Positions 2,965 through 37,749 are shown, counted from the stretch's first letter. The stretch: 64,000 nt of DNA from a bacterium (GCA_963637115.1 CAVHLO010000001.1:244333-308332), one strand, 5' to 3'. Translations and numbers: made by a program. The notes: generated from the letters alone by a model not told the origin.

Positions 2965-3379
2965 AGTTGTAGGTTCCAATTACTCTTATGATTGTTTTTA
3001 AATAAAACCAGTTTTTACAAAAAGAATGCAGCCTTCTGGTGTGTCGGCTGGAACCTACAATTTTTCGCTTTACATCGCAAAGAAATCATAAGACCGACGC
3101 CTTTAAGGCTGCAGTCAAACTTCTTTGAGATGTAAAATAAAAATCTCAAATCAGCGATTTTAAAATTGTAAGTTCCAATTTGATTATACCATATTTGATA
3201 AATTTTTACCCGTCTTTGTCTCTATATTCTTTGAATTTAGATTAAAGAATATCACCGGTTTAATTGATGATAATACTTTTAAAATCTTGTATTTTTCAGT
3301 TGTCTGTGTTATAATGAAGATATATTCCGATGCGGGCGAATCAAACGGAGAGATACCAAAGATGGACCCGCTTTTTTGA

Positions 3380-11764: not shown

Positions 11765-12733
11765 TTAAAGTAGGTTTTGGAAGAAATCGGCGAAGGCAAA
11801 AACAAGAATAAAGGCAGCGACCAGAAAGGGGCCGAAGTGAAGTTTTAGGGCGAGGGTGTTGGTGGATTTGGAGAAGTTGGGGGTGGCTGAGTTGGGGGCG
11901 GGACTATGAGTGGAGGTGGAGTTAGTGGTGGATTTTCTGGATTTTTTGGGGAGCCTCAGAAGATGAGGGAGGGCATAGAGACAGGCGAGAAAATTGGCGA
12001 AAAAGAGGACAAGGAGAGCTAGAAACGGGTCGGCGAGAGCGAGGGCAATGGCAAGAGCGAGTAGCCAGTCGCCGTCGCCGACCCAGTTGCCGCGGCTGAA
12101 TTTATAGAGAGCGTAGTAGAGACCTGGGAGAATAAGAATAGCGGCTAGCAGGGGTAGGATAAAGTTTTCGAGAGTGAGGCTAGCAACGGAAAAGCTGGCC
12201 CATACTCTCAGGGTTAAGAGAATTATAGCACAGATTATCGAAATTGTCAAGGCGATGGTCGGGAGCTCGCCGTAGAGAGCGTCGTAAATCGCAAGGAACA
12301 GAAGAGTAAGAACGAGCAGAAAAAGTACAATCAGAAGCGGAATAATAAAGGCGGGGGCGGAAGTGGTTAGGGTGGCGAAGTTGGTCGTTGTGGCAAAAGT
12401 AAGCGGGTCAGAGGCGAGGGGCGTGGCGGTCAGTATGGGGATAAAGGTAAAGCCGAGGAGAAGAAAGGTGAGGGCAGAAAAAAGTTCAGACAGAAATTCG
12501 GCGGGGCCGATTGGGGCGTGGCAGTAGCGACAACGCCCCCCAAGGGTAAGCCAAGAAATGAGTGGTAAATTGTCATACCAAGCGAGTTGATGTTTACAGG
12601 AAAGGCAGACGGAGCGAGAACCGAGGGGCTTTTTTCCCTGCTCTCTATGCCGCAGACGGCGGGCGGTGCAACACAAAAACGAGCCAAAACAGGCGCCGAG
12701 AATGAATAAAAAGATTAGAAACACAACCGACAT
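11765..12733 (-). CDS. pilD: prepilin peptidase / N-methyltransferase (A24 family) PilD
   Basis: N-terminal Cys-pair region (CLSCKHQL...CRYCHAPI), multiple TM helices, and the active-site region WVGDGDWLL. Adjacent to pilin genes. Confidence 0.85.
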   Translation of the reverse strand: MSVVFLIFLFILGACFGSFLCCTARRLRHREQGKKPLGSRSVCLSCKHQLAWYDNLPLISWLTLGGRCRYCHAPIGPAEFLSELFSALTFLLLGFTFIPILTATPLASDPLTFATTTNFATLTTSAPAFIIPLLIVLFLLVLTLLFLAIYDALYGELPTIALTISIICAIILLTLRVWASFSVASLTLENFILPLLAAILILPGLYYALYKFSRGNWVGDGDWLLALAIALALADPFLALLVLFFANFLACLYALPHLLRLPKKSRKSTTNSTSTHSPAPNSATPNFSKSTNTLALKLHFGPFLVAAFILVFAFADFFQNLL

Positions 12734-28652: not shown

Positions 28653-30842
28653 TTACTGGGCGTGCTCGTCAAATTCTTCCATGGAAGAAATCAGGAGATC
28701 GCGGGGTTTAGTGCCACGAGTTGGGCCGACGACGCCGATGTCTTCGAGCCAGAAGCCGAGGCCGGAGACCCAGCCGTGCCCTTTGGACAAGCGGGTTTGG
28801 AGCATACCAGTTGAGAATTTGCCGCCAGCAATAGAAAGTTCGACTGCCTTGCGGACAAGCGGGTCGTTCGGGTCAAAAGTACGCCCCATGCCTTCCATGT
28901 CGCCACCGCCGCCGCCTTTCAAAGCGACTGTTTGAGCTACAACTTCATCATTATATTCTGGCGGGCGCTGAGCGCGAAGAAAATCTGTGACTTTTTCAAT
29001 GTCTTCGTCGGGGGTCCAAGCGCCCTGAATACGCTCGGGACCATTACCAGTGCCTTCGGCCGAGAGCAACATATCGCCTTTGCCGAGCAATTTTTCGGCA
29101 CCAGACAGGTCAAGAATAACGCGCGAATCCATAGAGGTTAGGACACGGAACGCGATACGGGACGGAATATTGCTTTTGATGAGGCCCGTAATGACTTTGA
29201 CGATTGGTTTCTGGGTGGCGAGAACGAGATGCATGCCAGCAGCACGACCGAGCTGGGCGATACGGACGATGAGCGGTTCGAGCTCTTTGGAAGCTTGCAT
29301 CATGAGATCCGACATTTCGTCAATAACAATGACAATGTAGGGCATTTTGCTATTTTCGGTGGCTGGAGCATCCTTCCCAGCATTGGTGGCGACGGGGTTT
29401 TTGGACATTTTTTTGTTGTAGTCGGAAATAGTTTTGACGCCTTCGTCGGCCATTAAATCATAGCGTCGGTCCATTTCGCCAGCTGCCCATTTCATGGCCG
29501 AAAGGGCTTTTTCGGTGCTGGTGATAATTGGAGTAAGCAGGTGCGGAATATCATTATAGGCGCGCATTTCGACTTTTTTCGGGTCGACAATAATCATACG
29601 CATATCGGAAGGAGCGTTGCGATAAAGCAGCGACATAATGAGAGTATTGGTCATGACAGATTTACCAGAGCCGGTAGTACCAGCGATAAGCAAGTGACGC
29701 ATGTCGGCAAGGTCGGCAACTACGGGTTTGCCGGAAATGTTTTTGCCAATGACGAACGAAAGCGGGCCAGAACCTTTTTTCCATTCGGGGGTTTCGATAA
29801 CGCCCCTTAGGGAGACAGATTCGGAACGAACATTCGGGACTTCAACACCGATGAGCTGGGTGCCTGGAATTGGCGCCTCGATACGGACAGTGGTGGCGGA
29901 AAGTTTGTAGGCGAGTTCTTTGTCGCGAGCAGCGATTTTGGCAAGGTTAACCCCGCCTGGGGCTTTTAGGGTGTATTGAGTAACGCGCGGCCCGACGTTG
30001 GCGCCTTCCATTTCGACGTCGATACCAAATTCGGCAAAAGTATCTTTGATAATGAAAGCGTTTTGCTGAATATTACCAGCATCGGCGGGGGATTGTTTTT
30101 TGGTAAGCAAATCAACCGACGGAAGCTTCCAGTTCGGATCGGTGGTAGCCGTGAGAGCGGAAGGTTCTTTGACAGGTTCGGGCTCGGTAGGTTTTTTGGC
30201 TTTGGCAAATTTTTTGGGCGAAGCGTCGAGAGTGGCGCTGCCAGAATTGACTTTGATTTCGAGCTGGCCGAATTTGCGGTTTGGTTTTTCGTTGTTGTCG
30301 GTTGTAGTTTTAGTGGTTTGGTCGTGATTTTTGAGATTTTTGGCGCCTTTGAATAGAGTGAGTGGAGAAAGTTGAAGCATAAATAAGGCGGTGATAAAAA
30401 TCAAAATTAGGTAGATAAAAATGACGGCGGTTGGGCTAAGGACGTTAAGCATGAGCGAATTAAGACCGTTGCCGATGATGCCACCGTTGTGCCAAATGGC
30501 GGCGATGCCAGAAAGCCAGAGAATGATAAGGAGACTAGAAAAGTAAACTGGGGCGGCGACGCGGTTGTCTGGGGAGCGGAAAATTTTGACAGCAAGATAG
30601 ACCAGGAGCGGAGGGATGAAATAAGTGGCAAAGCCGAGGCCGTTTAAGATGAATTGGTGAATGTTGTTAGTGATAGTGCCACCTTGACCAAACCAAGTGA
30701 TGACAAAGAAAAGCGCAAGAGCGAGCAAGATAACGGCGAAGATTTGACGCCAAAAACCACCTGGGAGCTCGTGCTCAACAGGGGCTTCTTTTTTGGTCCG
30801 TTTAGAGGTTTTACGTGTGGATTTGCGCTTTTTGGTAGGCAT
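28653..30842 (-). CDS. ftsK: DNA translocase FtsK/SpoIIIE
   Basis: N-terminal TM helices, motor domain with Walker A GTTGSGKSV and Walker B IVIVIDE, and a C-terminal gamma wHTH. Confidence 0.92.
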   Translation of the reverse strand: MPTKKRKSTRKTSKRTKKEAPVEHELPGGFWRQIFAVILLALALFFVITWFGQGGTITNNIHQFILNGLGFATYFIPPLLVYLAVKIFRSPDNRVAAPVYFSSLLIILWLSGIAAIWHNGGIIGNGLNSLMLNVLSPTAVIFIYLILIFITALFMLQLSPLTLFKGAKNLKNHDQTTKTTTDNNEKPNRKFGQLEIKVNSGSATLDASPKKFAKAKKPTEPEPVKEPSALTATTDPNWKLPSVDLLTKKQSPADAGNIQQNAFIIKDTFAEFGIDVEMEGANVGPRVTQYTLKAPGGVNLAKIAARDKELAYKLSATTVRIEAPIPGTQLIGVEVPNVRSESVSLRGVIETPEWKKGSGPLSFVIGKNISGKPVVADLADMRHLLIAGTTGSGKSVMTNTLIMSLLYRNAPSDMRMIIVDPKKVEMRAYNDIPHLLTPIITSTEKALSAMKWAAGEMDRRYDLMADEGVKTISDYNKKMSKNPVATNAGKDAPATENSKMPYIVIVIDEMSDLMMQASKELEPLIVRIAQLGRAAGMHLVLATQKPIVKVITGLIKSNIPSRIAFRVLTSMDSRVILDLSGAEKLLGKGDMLLSAEGTGNGPERIQGAWTPDEDIEKVTDFLRAQRPPEYNDEVVAQTVALKGGGGGDMEGMGRTFDPNDPLVRKAVELSIAGGKFSTGMLQTRLSKGHGWVSGLGFWLEDIGVVGPTRGTKPRDLLISSMEEFDEHAQ

Positions 30843-34955: not shown

Positions 34956-36065
34956 TTATAGCATATTCAGGTGTTTTAGGTGGTGGAGCAGGGCGTGGAG
35001 ATGGTAAAATGGCAGATTGACGGGGAGTTCATAAGCGCCGAGTAATTCAGTGACGCGACCGGTAGTTTCGGAAGTGAAGCCTTTTTTGAAGTCGTAGATA
35101 CCGTTGTCTTGCGAGTTCGGATCGGGGAGGCCGTTGATACCGTAGAAATTATAGCGTTTGAATTTGTGTTCGGCGGCGTATTTGATCATGTGCCATTGAA
35201 TTAAATATTGAGCGTTGTATTCTTTCATGTAGGTTTCGTCGCTACCAGAGAAGAGATAAATAACTTCGTCGCCATAAAGCATAAACATAGCGGCGGAGAG
35301 TGGGGTGTTTTTCAGGGGAGTGGCGGTCGACGCTGCTGTGGCGCCTGATACCTCCGCGACGAGAAATTTTACTTCCCCTCTGTCGGCAAAAAGGTCATAC
35401 ATCTGTTCGTAATATTTCAGAGGTTTGTCGGTAAAGTGGCGGCGGGCGGAAGTCGAGGCGGTGATTTGCTTGAAAATTGAGAGTTCGTCGCGGGAGAGTT
35501 CACGGATCTCGACGCCTTTTTTCTCGGCTTTGCGGATATGATTTCTAGTGTTGCGCTTAAAATCGGCGAAAATTTCGTCAGGGGTGCGATTATTGAGCTC
35601 TAAAACGAAGGCATATTTTGGCTCGTCGGAGGTTTTTAGGGGTTTAAAACCGAGAGTTTGGAGATTTTTTACGGCTTTTTGGTGATTAAAACCGTTTTTG
35701 ACTGGTTCGCCGGCGCGATCGCGTTCGATAAGTTCGTAATAAGGTTCGATGTGGAGAACATAGCCGTTGTGAGTTTTGGCGAAGTGGCGGAGGTGGCGGA
35801 TAAAAAAGTTGAGAATTTTAGTGTCTTCGTAATCGACCAACGGACCACCTGGGGCGTAGAAAATCGACTTACCGAGAAAGGCTGGTTTGGCGACGACAAG
35901 AGAAGCGGCGACGAGTTTTTCGGCGTTCTTGACGCCAAAATAATAAGCCGTCCAACCGTTTTGTTCGCGCAAGTTCGCGATTTCGGGAGTTTGGTAGAAA
36001 GATTTGTTCGGGTGATTCTTGGCGAAATTACGAAATTCCGTGGGGGTGAGTTCGATAAATTGCAT
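34956..36065 (-). CDS. FemAB-family peptidoglycan interpeptide-bridge aminoacyltransferase
   Basis: Full-length FemAB/MurM-like (FYQTPEIANLREQNGW..., YNAQYLIQWHMIKYA, RYNFYGI). Confidence 0.8.
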   Translation of the reverse strand: MQFIELTPTEFRNFAKNHPNKSFYQTPEIANLREQNGWTAYYFGVKNAEKLVAASLVVAKPAFLGKSIFYAPGGPLVDYEDTKILNFFIRHLRHFAKTHNGYVLHIEPYYELIERDRAGEPVKNGFNHQKAVKNLQTLGFKPLKTSDEPKYAFVLELNNRTPDEIFADFKRNTRNHIRKAEKKGVEIRELSRDELSIFKQITASTSARRHFTDKPLKYYEQMYDLFADRGEVKFLVAEVSGATAASTATPLKNTPLSAAMFMLYGDEVIYLFSGSDETYMKEYNAQYLIQWHMIKYAAEHKFKRYNFYGINGLPDPNSQDNGIYDFKKGFTSETTGRVTELLGAYELPVNLPFYHLHALLHHLKHLNML

Positions 36066-36066
36066 G

Positions 36067-37164
36067 TTATTTCCTTATTAAACGGTTAAATTTACGGAGA
36101 AGTGAGTAAAGGCGGTATTTGGTGGGGTCGAGGACGAGGTCGTAGGTGCCGGCGTAGTCGACTTCGGTGCCAGCGAAGGTCTTTTTGAAGTTGGTGAAGC
36201 CCTGCCAAGGGTGGTCTTTGGGGGCGTTTTCGGGGGCGATACCCCAGAAATCGAAGGTTTTTTGACCTTTCTTGGCGGCGTCGAGGATTAGCTGAATAGT
36301 CAAAATTCCGGTGGCGTGGAGCTTTCTTCCCTGTTCGGATTGGGCGCCTTGGAGATTATAACGCGTGGTACAGTCGTCGAAAACGAGGCCGGCAGCGATG
36401 ACTTCGCCTATATTATTAAGAGCTGGAATGACTTCTCTCGGGTCGCGTCCGGTCAGCCCGTCGCCACGGGTGACCGGCGCTAATCCTCGCGCTGCCGCGC
36501 TCCGGAATCCCCTCGAGAAGTCATTCTCAGCTTCATAGTCAACCGTGCTCGAACACCCGTCGCCACATATATTCCTCGAACGAGGGTGTTCTGCGCACGC
36601 ACTAACAAGATAGAGGGTGGCGAAGGGTTGCTTTAGCTCCGTTTTTAGGTAATTTTCGGAGAAAGTGTTGATTTTTTTCTCCTTGGCGAGAGCTTTTTGG
36701 AGGTCTAGGAGATAGCGGATATCATCGGGGTTGTGGCTAGTGGTGATTTTGATGCCGTTTTTTTCGGCGTTTTTATAATAGCGCAAAAGTCGCGAGGGGA
36801 GGCGGGATTTTAGGTCGTCTTCCTTCCCTGTTAGATCGAGCTTCCAAGTCTCTTTGGGGTTTAAATCAGTTGATTTTTTAGCAATTCGGGGGAGATGATC
36901 AGTAAAAATTTTAGATTGAGGCTCGACGCGAATAAAAAAGGCGTTTTGGCGACTGGCGAGGTTTTTAAGACTTTTAAGCGAATTTTCAAAACCAGATTTT
37001 TGCTCAAAAACTGGTCCATAGGGGAGATAAAGGTAGTTCCCCACTGGAGTTTTTTTCAAAATCGCCAGATATTGGTAGCCACTTCCCTGCTCAAAAAAAC
37101 TTACTTCGTGCAAATCATCCTGAAGTTGTTTCCATTCTGAAGTCTGCGTAATCGGTGCATTCAT
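36067..37164 (-). CDS. FemAB-family aminoacyltransferase paralog carrying in-frame palindromic insertions
   Basis: FemAB-like N-terminal and C-terminal halves (LYLPYGPV..., YNLQGAQSE, FDFWGIAP), interrupted by a GC-rich segment of about 57 codons (CAEHPRSRNICGDG...RDPREVIPA). Confidence 0.75.
   Translation of the reverse strand: MNAPITQTSEWKQLQDDLHEVSFFEQGSGYQYLAILKKTPVGNYLYLPYGPVFEQKSGFENSLKSLKNLASRQNAFFIRVEPQSKIFTDHLPRIAKKSTDLNPKETWKLDLTGKEDDLKSRLPSRLLRYYKNAEKNGIKITTSHNPDDIRYLLDLQKALAKEKKINTFSENYLKTELKQPFATLYLVSACAEHPRSRNICGDGCSSTVDYEAENDFSRGFRSAAARGLAPVTRGDGLTGRDPREVIPALNNIGEVIAAGLVFDDCTTRYNLQGAQSEQGRKLHATGILTIQLILDAAKKGQKTFDFWGIAPENAPKDHPWQGFTNFKKTFAGTEVDYAGTYDLVLDPTKYRLYSLLRKFNRLIRK
36426..36591 (-). 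repeat. two adjacent GC-rich palindromic elements inside the FemAB paralog (full copy 36426-36526, short copy 36551-36591)
   Basis: Perfect 12-bp termini GAATGACTTCTC/GAGAAGTCATTC. Internal hairpins at 36445-36480 and 36489-36500. The core GCCCGTCGCCACGGGT is shared with the valS element. The short copy has GAACACCC/GGGTGTTC termini and the same CCCGTCGCCAC core. Confidence 0.8.
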
Positions 37165-37486
37165 AATAAACCCATTATATCATATGGTCATGTGTATTTT
37201 TTTGACAACTTAAGCGTTTTATTTTTGCTTATGCAAAATCTCCGGCTTAGATTTTAAGTCGGTTGCTAAATAATGTTCGCCCACCTATTTCCCAACTGCT
37301 CCGGTCTCGGATGCTAGTGGTTAGTTCAATTTTAGCGCGAGCGGGTTGGTTTGTCAAGTTGGTTGCTAGCCGTCGTGGTTGCTAGCATAACGGGGAATTA
37401 GTTTCTAAAACTGCTTGTGGTTTGGTGGAAAAACATGAGAATTTTAGGTGGAAAATTTTTCGGCTCCAGTGTGATACAATTAAGAT

Positions 37487-37699
37487 ATGGCTTTTATAAG
37501 AAAATTCAAAACAACTTCGGGCGCGACTGGGGTGCAGGTGGTTTATAAAGAGGGGGAACGAGTGGTAAAAACGGTGCATGTCGGGTCAGCATCGTCGGAG
37601 GAAAAGTTGCTAAAACTTTTGCGAAAAGCGCAGGGAATTATAGATAGCGACAAAATACCGCTGTTTGACCTAGATAAGTTTAATAGGGAAATAAAGTAA
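37487..37699 (+). pseudogene. N-terminal remnant of an IS1634/IS4-like transposase (70 codons)
   Basis: MAFIRKFKTTSGATGVQVVYKEGERVVKTVHVGSA resembles the conserved N-terminus of IS1634-group transposases. The rest of the gene is absent. Confidence 0.45.
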
Positions 37700-37704
37700 A
37701 CATG

Positions 37705-37728
37705 AAAAAACCCGCCTTGAGGCGGGCT
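37705..37728 (-). terminator. rho-independent terminator of the GH13 gene
   Basis: Minus strand: CCCGCC-TCAA-GGCGGG followed by T6. Confidence 0.75.
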
Positions 37729-37749
37729 TTCGTCTATCAGTTGTTTTTA

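Follow-up and report, generated by a model that had tools for sequence, protein, structure and literature searches.

In-frame palindromic elements with a conserved core and copy-private, covarying stems in genes of Saccharibacteria

Rickettsia palindromic elements (RPEs) are reported to have been described by Ogata et al. (2000) and are mentioned elsewhere (PMC1779305; PMC10969869). RPEs are about 100-150 bp long and lie in frame in housekeeping genes, where they are read in several frames and presumably translated as surface loops; copies are also found between genes. The copies resemble one another along their whole length. To our knowledge, no RPE has been reported to show nucleotide constraint above the synonymous level or a strong polarity to GC skew, both of which are seen in the elements described here.

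Several other systems are related in form or in behavior. REP/REPIN sequences with RAYT, among them the GTAG- and CGTC-tagged REPs, are mostly extragenic repeats of 20-40 nt whose stem is conserved and carries an unpaired tag at its foot (PMC3733652). IS200/IS605 elements and their miniature derivatives transpose as single strands at the replication fork (PMC5027513; PMC6006769). Bacterial MITEs include Correia, ERIC/RU, and QMITE (PMC5896051; PMC2759123; PMC3184786). Lastly, template-switch mutations create or maintain hairpins by copying one arm onto the other, which produces multiple “compensatory” changes at once (PMC8794818). In the literature searched, no paper was found that links Saccharibacteria with palindromic or MITE-like intragenic elements, and the family presented below is apparently undescribed.

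The locus of interest is a FemAB-family gene within the window, by which we mean the whole stretch of 64,000 nucleotides that was analyzed. An initial annotation, made from the sequence alone, had described two palindromic copies in tandem and in frame in this gene and had assigned them to the family of an element in valS. The features and coordinates that it gave for both copies held when compared with the sequence, the inverted repeats, and the fold, and so did their tandem, in-frame placement and their kinship with the valS element. A profile search found only three family members within the window: the type B copy, the type A stump, and the valS copy. They are listed here with their parts and the host gene.

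36067-37164, minus strand: host gene, FemAB-family paralog of 365 amino acids (Pfam FemAB, 9.6e-22, two stretches)
36412-36588, minus strand: FemAB codons 193-251, the part of the paralog that the two elements encode; predicted disordered loop between beta strands
36420-36532, minus strand: complete type B element of ~113 nt, with P1 as the outer stem that closes a three-way junction
36421-36442: first arm of P1, AGCTG followed by GAATGACTTCTC, a tandem-GA loop, and GGG (written on the + strand of the window)
36510-36531: partner arm of P1 (inverted repeat, fold, and covariation)
36445-36480, minus strand: hairpin P3, GCG-CCGGTCA-CCCGT / loop / ACGGG-TGACCGG-CGC, which holds the core shared with valS
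36484-36506, minus strand: hairpin P2, TCC/GGA plus GCGC-loop-GCGC, homologous to P2 of the type A'' subfamily
36551-36591, minus strand: internally deleted type A stump, with outer arms GAACACCC/GGGTGTTC and the 5' half of P2
41066-41179, minus strand: complete type A element, in frame in valS (inverted repeat; fold z = -8.1; nhmmer E = 6e-17)

The complete copy is matched at 36420-36532 by positions 2-112 of the type B profile (nhmmer, E = 7.7e-32) and has orthologous copies in L001-L003. Its termini were confirmed (GAATGACTTCTC at 36426-36437 and GAGAAGTCATTC at 36515-36526), along with the interrupted 15-bp hairpin at 36445-36480 and the GCGC-TGCC-GCGC segment at 36489-36500. The inverted repeat is longer than 12 nt, extending over 17 nt (36426-36442 / 36510-36526), and folding lengthens P1 outward to AGCTG/CAGCT (36421-36531). 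The AGCT found on both sides of the copy had been suggested as a target duplication. This suggestion failed, since AGCTG/CAGCT is the outermost part of the stem and its columns covary in orthologues.

The short unit had been regarded as a derivative of the full copy, which did not hold either: it is a stump of the valS-type (type A) element and not of the adjacent type B element. Its arms, GAACACCC at 36551-36558 and GGGTGTTC at 36584-36591, form an inverted repeat, and nhmmer aligns the unit (36551-36591) to positions 3-38 of the type A profile. In L002 and L003 a full type A copy occupies the place of the stump in the FemAB gene, preceding type B. It is inferred from sequence alone that the stump arose by deletion between two CGACGGG direct repeats. 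The P0002 protein shows a further deletion, between two GTGGCGACGGG repeats.

GC content of the element segment is 0.62-0.64, compared with ~0.45 nearby. The 16-nt core GCCCGTCGYCACGGGT occurs exactly twice in 64 kb (36456 and 41103) where 0.03 occurrences are expected, and CCCGTCGCCAC with at most one mismatch occurs eight times against an expectation of 0.84. The segment 36420-36595 folds at -93 kcal/mol (z = -7.7). A structure check by RNA folding had been proposed by the initial annotation; at both the FemAB and valS loci and on either strand, folding was better than in shuffled sequence (z = -7.5 to -8.1; 0/200 shuffles as good). A permissive Rfam 15 scan of 35500-42000 for ribozymes, introns, and riboswitches gave no family match; the one model to hit the element, for a miRNA, did so by chance (26.7 bits, with a gathering score of 44; E = 0.13).

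In the host gene, the two elements lie in tandem in ORF 36067-37164(-) and within one beta-hairpin loop, the GC-rich tract being placed between the codons for FATLYLVS and VIAAGLVFDD. In the AlphaFold2 model pLDDT falls below 50 only at residues 193-251, the turn between strands 182-189 and 254-263, while the remainder lies at 80-96. A protein search returned more than 1000 FemAB homologues of 301-419 aa, the nearest of which bear Candidatus Saccharibacteria names. Alignment of the homologues confined the length variation to the insert site, with zero to four modules per orthologue. Module type A reads …SRSIFxDGxNTERPSPVTTGARERSEN… and is the element carried by valS in the window; module type B reads …DFSRGFRSAAARGLAPVTRGDGLTGRDPREV… and is the full copy at 36420-36532. 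Comparison with insert-free orthologues, another check that had been suggested, showed that many proteins of 301-310 aa lack the insert, which is also missing from the Pfam FemAB model and from FemAB orthologues beyond a narrow clade.

A wider search was run as a core-pattern scan together with profiles, and it recovered many members in Saccharibacteria. The type A census used a 23-nt core pattern and one genome per species. At least 118 genomic stretches carry this core, all of them in Saccharibacteria/Nanosyncoccus MAGs except for one 5-kb contig that is probably mis-binned. The carrier MAGs derive from ruminant, human, mouse, and termite samples, and neither core was found in the viral contigs scanned. 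The type B profile search added at least 20 further copies, and the same profile also detects type A'' copies. Types A and B have in common the P1 junction (C-GA-G/C-GA-G) and the P2 frame (TCCGGAG..CGAGGA). Because the junction and hairpin frame are common to both and the B profile cross-detects A'', the two types are considered one superfamily, which in the data scanned is specific to Saccharibacteria and comprises elements of ~100-130 nt. The initial annotation would have been refuted had the insert aligned at the protein level with FemAB homologues of other lineages, or had the core been a chance match without further members. Neither was the case, given that the insert is confined to a narrow clade and the core is so widely found.

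Each copy has the same anatomy: a long outer stem (P1), a symmetric tandem G·A internal loop, and two hairpins (P2 and P3). Median length is 127 nt by MFE span, or ~100-120 nt when trimmed. P2 occurs in several subtypes, with loops GACG(G), CAACGG, or UUACGA, and P3 consists of CCCGU-RACG-ACGGG placed on 2-bp helices that are split by further tandem G·A loops. Both hairpin loops are of the NACG type, and the core is non-palindromic and conserved; core and loops are maintained over ~73 genomes. The GACG motif (CGTC on the opposite strand) is found in the loops and not at the foot of the stem.

The paired regions vary in sequence and retain their pairing. Covariation was tested with 17 type B copies on the structure taken from the window copy. 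Paired cells amounted to 88.3%, compared with 73.9% in shuffles (0/500 as high) and 34-45% with slid partners; compensatory changes were seen in 28 of the 42 pairs, and the covariation score was 0.418 against a control of 0.173. Most P1 pairs (16/20) have changed on both sides. P3 has compensatory changes in nine of its 15 pairs and pairing in 96.8% of cells, and the P2 stem GCGC/GCGC becomes GCCT/AGGC in four copies (pairs 38:45 and 39:44). The extended P3 of type A covaries as well. RNAalifold on a plain MAFFT alignment recovered P3 only, the arms being out of register.

The outer arms were further compared in 122 type A copies. Within a copy the arms are perfectly complementary over a median of 16 nt (score 12); between copies there is no pairing (score 6, maximum 11), and random copies have an arm identity of 0.42. 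Outer-stem sequence is thus private to each copy and pairing is kept. These results bear out the earlier claim that arms of unlike sequence are nonetheless self-complementary, which had been taken as a sign of a constraint or mechanism that acts on structure. Mismatches within the stems, counted as a test of RNA or DNA strand, were less informative. Counts of G·T and A·C changed with the strand whose fold defined the stems. Under strand-symmetric counting at lenient settings they numbered 99 and 89, respectively, in the 62 sense copies, with the other classes balanced; strict settings gave 21 and 6. The type B alignment contains 35 G·T and 25 A·C mismatches (p = 0.25).

Gene context was counted on 122 non-redundant type A copies. 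Of these, 103 lie in a 263-nt segment that is fully open in at least one frame, and 98 lie in ORFs of at least 600 nt. About 85% are intragenic, a figure close to the coding density, and none of the ~103 in-gene copies breaks the host frame by a stop or frameshift. The remaining 19 are intergenic or at gene boundaries. Split genes around the apparently non-coding copies were considered and rejected, as every tested pair of flanking ORFs proved to be two different genes (gyrB/gyrA, thrS/miaA, iscS/mnmA, and others). Host genes show no consistent class, nor do the copies show a consistent position.

The elements are read in five of the six frames. At the TsaD site the element is antisense, and two genomes with proteins ~92% identical use different frames for it. 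The core is read as PVTTG in valS and as VTRGDG in FemAB, and ~25% of intragenic copies are antisense. Since the identical element is read in five of six frames, the peptide appears irrelevant: elements must be translatable, and what they encode is unimportant. Translation itself is inferred and has not been observed directly; peptides spanning, for example, SAAARGLAPVTRGDGLTGR would demonstrate it, if found. Together with the absence of codon periodicity, the five frames and the antisense TsaD copy uphold the earlier claim of a nucleic-acid element as opposed to a protein module.

In three related genomes, the syntenic loci with type A or B elements are a P-type ATPase, TsaD, both FemAB genes, and valS, the last at two sites. 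Which of these sites are occupied varies among the genomes and the window; relatives carry copies in TsaD, in the ATPase, in the second FemAB gene, and at valS site 2, where the window has none. At the 41066-41179 site, valS of L001 has no element, and L002 and L003 carry a different subfamily. Stumps and partial copies are also present at orthologous sites, which shows that loss of copies is tolerated. In copies at the same site, arm identity tracks the four-fold-site identity of the flanking codons. From this it follows that copies are inherited and that their arms drift about neutrally while remaining paired.

Constraint was examined for the type B element of FemAB in four genomes, which were located by orthology of the gene and not by the motif. 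In this comparison, identity was 0.52-0.63 at four-fold sites of the host gene, 0.71-0.88 in the element arms, 0.86-0.94 in the paired core, and 0.81-1.00 in the unpaired core. Within the element, identity by codon position was 0.886 (first), 0.815 (second), and 0.882 (third), the second being the most variable; this is the opposite of a coding signature. Because identity exceeds that of four-fold sites and lacks codon periodicity, the constraint is assigned to the nucleic acid. In a motif-selected sample from which the 23 nt were removed, same-site identity falls to the family background of ~0.65 at four-fold identities of 0.55 or less. Support for the constraint claim therefore comes mainly from the orthologues in FemAB and the ATPase, which were unascertained. 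Concerted evolution within genomes was not seen when cores were compared (identity 0.73 within and 0.70 between genomes), and as cores are not homogenized, gene conversion is not an easy explanation. Conservation of the core is real; selection in place, conversion, and hotspot turnover each remain a possible cause.

The elements also have a fixed polarity to the compositional asymmetry of the chromosome strands. In type A, the + strand lies on the C-rich strand of the chromosome in 96 of 108 copies (p = 2e-17), whichever strand the host gene is on, and type B behaves alike (18/21). The strand placed on the C-rich side in these counts is the one written GAGMCCYGTRACGACRGGCKCGA, so that in type A (96/108) the G-rich strand of the element lies on the C-rich strand of the chromosome. 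Antisense copies are found where host genes are on the G-rich strand. GC skew of the + strand ranges from +0.1 to +0.35 across the window, regardless of gene direction. A link to replication is inferred only, and the leading strand has not been assigned. Integron attC arrays have a comparable, known polarity (PMC5371416), as have elements that are processed at the fork in single-stranded form (PMC5027513; PMC6006769), and unusual strand disparity has been reported in some CPR genomes (PMC7143001). Orientation-dependent loss of hairpins is a possible alternative source of the polarity.

The reading we favor, with a probability of roughly 0.55, is that the palindromic insertion element is ancient, inherited vertically, and kept in frame, and that it works in the manner of an RPE. 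The data show membership in the family, the architecture, residence in frame, covariation, constraint at the nucleotide level, and polarity; a selfish origin, translation, and the replication link are inferred. In this view, the insertions into genes would be old and would have fallen in surface loops that tolerate them, here the turn of the FemAB beta-hairpin. Copies would stay open and in frame, be translated as disordered loop peptides, and be passed on vertically. Loss would occur through slippage between short internal direct repeats, the stump at 36551-36591 being one putative product. Stem sequence would shift with pairing kept, either by compensatory substitution or by hairpin-templated (template-switch) repair. 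The core is held near-constant at the nucleotide level. The polarity would point to a step on single-stranded DNA at the replication fork, in insertion or in survival.

Among the copies compared, there is no sign of recent copy-and-paste: no two sites have common arms, and near-identical young copies were not encountered. The copies and sites examined gave no conserved terminal inverted repeat, no clear target duplication, and no transposase. Filled and empty sites share at most 2 nt of microhomology (L002 and the window at the ATPase). Many of the sites that look empty are stumps, and in one case, L024 against L047/L034, a few host codons are replaced. Identical sites in different genomes hold different subfamilies and both orientations (the MnmA, valS, and ATPase sites), and on this account hotspot re-insertion, core replacement, or inversion between the arms is needed. 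A further point against the favored reading is that a purely selfish resident is expected to decay neutrally, yet the core and even third codon positions are conserved.

Compared with the described systems, the elements are nearest to RPEs. They meet the RPE pattern of a 100-150 bp palindromic repeat with a stable hairpin (median 127 nt; z about -8) and of in-frame insertion without ORF breakage (~85% intragenic, none disruptive). A host-associated bacterium with a reduced genome, the use of several frames, and intergenic copies are further points of likeness. The phylum differs, all hits here being in Saccharibacteria, and “works like” is accordingly meant without a claim of membership or sequence kinship. 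In addition, only the core is common to the copies here, while the stems are private. The elements differ from RPEs in the conserved center with private, covarying stems, and also in the nucleotide constraint and strand polarity, which are not known from RPEs.

Like the elements, REP/REPIN sequences are hairpin repeats that are sometimes intragenic and long inherited, with putative handling of ssDNA by HUH enzymes and proposed host roles. The present family does not fit the REP definition, as its center is conserved, its stem is variable, and 85% of copies are intragenic; no RAYT is known for it. IS200/IS605 elements share a strong replication-related orientation bias (here 96/108 for type A and 18/21 for type B, without an assigned leading strand) and, by inference, a dependence on folded ssDNA. 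However, the subterminal hairpins at both ends, the fixed tetra- or pentanucleotide target, and the TnpA of that group were not identified here, where the architecture is a single closed three-way junction. MITEs are likewise small, non-autonomous, multi-copy, hairpin-forming, and sometimes intragenic and open-reading, but MITE copies have common terminal inverted repeats (here the arm score is 6 between copies and 12 within) and make target-site duplications, none of which is clear at the sites here. Template switching could keep the stems of the Saccharibacteria elements perfect. It is, however, a mutational process and not an element family, and it leaves the conserved unpaired core unexplained.

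The most durable rival holds that this is a functional cis-acting nucleic-acid element under purifying selection in the host, which is possible. It could be a strand-specific site, in ssDNA or a cruciform, to which a nucleoid, repair, or replication protein binds, as proposed for REP/BIME elements, or it could be a structured mRNA element. Such a binding site would have to sit inside coding sequence in tiny, gene-dense genomes. In its favor are conservation above the synonymous-site level without codon periodicity, the constancy of core and loops in ~73 genomes with covarying stems, a polarity of 89% with respect to strand skew whichever way the gene runs, and long retention at orthologous sites. 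Against it, presence varies among close relatives, the window lacking four sites that they fill. Stumps show that loss is tolerated, no gene class or position is consistent, and a multi-subfamily, multi-copy pattern is typical of mobile DNA. For a function in mRNA, the ~25% of intragenic copies that are antisense are a further objection, and G·T/A·C mismatches lack a clear strand preference.

A bolder version of the functional reading may also be entertained, in which the elements, far from being selfish inserts in decay, are dual-use ssDNA/RNA modules under purifying selection, in frame in housekeeping genes. They might have a fixed replication polarity and a conserved core for protein recognition (tandem G·A and NACG loops). 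The modules would be embedded in genes because Saccharibacteria have almost no intergenic space. If true, this would be a genome-wide, strand-specific signal concealed in coding sequence.

Less probable is a still-active element of which the core alone moves, with the stem remade by fold-back (snap-back) copying of the flanking target. This would account for stems that are private yet perfectly paired, and for the different subfamilies and orientations at identical sites. Individual cases are suggestive: in L027 one gene holds two copies with a near-identical core and unrelated arms. The element-free sequence of the window at valS site 2 is homologous to the outer part of the 3' arm, and the 5' arm is an inverted copy of that part, in genomes with different subfamilies; L116 and L113 show this pattern as well, at the “FTTRPDT” site. 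A systematic test gave a negative result, however. The outer 12 nt of the arms matched the empty site with a median of 0.75, no better than the arms of other copies that served as the control (0.70), only 3/18 exceeding the 95th percentile of the control. Moreover, arms are inherited and not remade, as same-site arm identity tracks host divergence, and the near-identical young copies that an active element would leave are not seen. We regard this explanation as unlikely.

Removal at the RNA level, as an intron-like sequence or by cutting of the stem and re-ligation, is more doubtful still. The conservation would then come from essential mRNAs having to be freed of the insert, the pattern resembles that of introns in essential genes, and the outer stem does juxtapose both gene junctions. 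Yet obligatory excision would not demand open frames, and 0/~103 in-gene copies have a stop or frameshift; a quarter of the copies are antisense, and there is no match to an Rfam ribozyme or intron. A selected FemAB peptide insertion, although the insert aligns as protein among the closest orthologues, is all but ruled out by the reading of the same DNA in other frames and orientations in other genes, by the variability of second codon positions in a loop predicted to be disordered, and by the lack of the peptide-level conservation, single frame, and codon periodicity that mark a protein module or mini-intein, just as chance palindromes are by the core counts, fold z-scores, and family size.

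On the favored reading of an RPE-like insertion element, in-frame palindromic DNA, best known so far from Rickettsia, is extended to the Candidate Phyla Radiation. A practical consequence concerns phylogenomics, where the inserts should be masked: they lengthen and break up the protein alignments of core genes in Saccharibacteria (valS, gyrA, FemAB, TsaD, and MnmA). A functional strand-specific signal remains a real yet unproven possibility. Saccharibacteria are tractable and naturally competent. Several questions become testable with these elements: how hairpins are kept up, whether by selection or template switching, how selfish DNA may give rise to new protein loops, and whether ultra-small genomes carry signals at the DNA level.

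A third hairpin unit, type C, has the peptide APWDANCRRQTG. It was found at two positions:
L003:15700-15745, in a genome related to that of the window, where TsaD carries a type A copy and the unit is nested in the P3 loop of that copy (P3 being one of the two core hairpins)
L124:1345-2397, second occurrence, in a more distant Saccharibacterium, within the insert at its FemAB hotspot

Other GC-rich inserts were seen at the same FemAB beta-hairpin loop in more distant Saccharibacteria (L123:3001-4044 and, again, L124:1345-2397). Their structure is weak (z = -1.7 to -2.2), and CGACGGG/CCCGTCGAG motifs are present within them. It is possible that these inserts are decayed relatives of the element family.

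Several element copies were also observed exactly on gene boundaries, at L108:6391-6504, at the same site in L074, and in L023 and L118, all loci from other genomes. Two genomes have a copy at the thrS|miaA boundary, and the other boundaries occupied are gyrB|gyrA and iscS|mnmA. Some intergenic copies are followed by terminator-like T-runs. A Saccharibacteria-type element was found in L112 (CAZRGP010000062.1) as well, yet this 5-kb contig is labeled 'uncultured Faecalibacterium sp.' The copy is orthologous to that of L041, with a 97% identical core, and the label is probably a binning error.

Other repeats were found in the window:
29386-29396 (-), exact match to the 11-mer CCCGTCGCCAC inside the FtsK-like ORF 28653-30842, without an element around it
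12027-12084, GC-rich inverted repeat of 16 nt (GGGTCGGCGAGAGCGA / TCGCCGTCGCCGACCC, spacer 26 nt) inside ORF 11765-12733(-)
2967-3093 and 3156-3286, AT-rich inverted repeats in two pairs, with arms of 12-25 nt lying 70-81 nt apart, in a region that is itself AT-rich

The 11-mer could be either a remnant or a chance match. The type A and type B nhmmer profiles gave no match to the 12027-12084 repeat, and the AT-rich pairs bear no relation to the GC-rich family. Across the window (1-64000), GC skew on the + strand is very strongly positive (+0.1 to +0.35 per 4 kb) and shows no dependence on gene direction; the C-rich strand holds 35 of the 49 long ORFs. Comparable strand disparity has been reported from other CPR lineages (PMC7143001).

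Two seemingly empty sites, in the MnmA gene of L056 and at valS site 1 of L001 (a locus syntenic with the window), hold small palindromes in which motifs of the element occur: GCAAGA..ATCGACGGGAAT..TCTTGC and GATGATAAAATCATC. Therefore many 'empty' alleles may be deletion stumps, that is, internally deleted remnants of the element.
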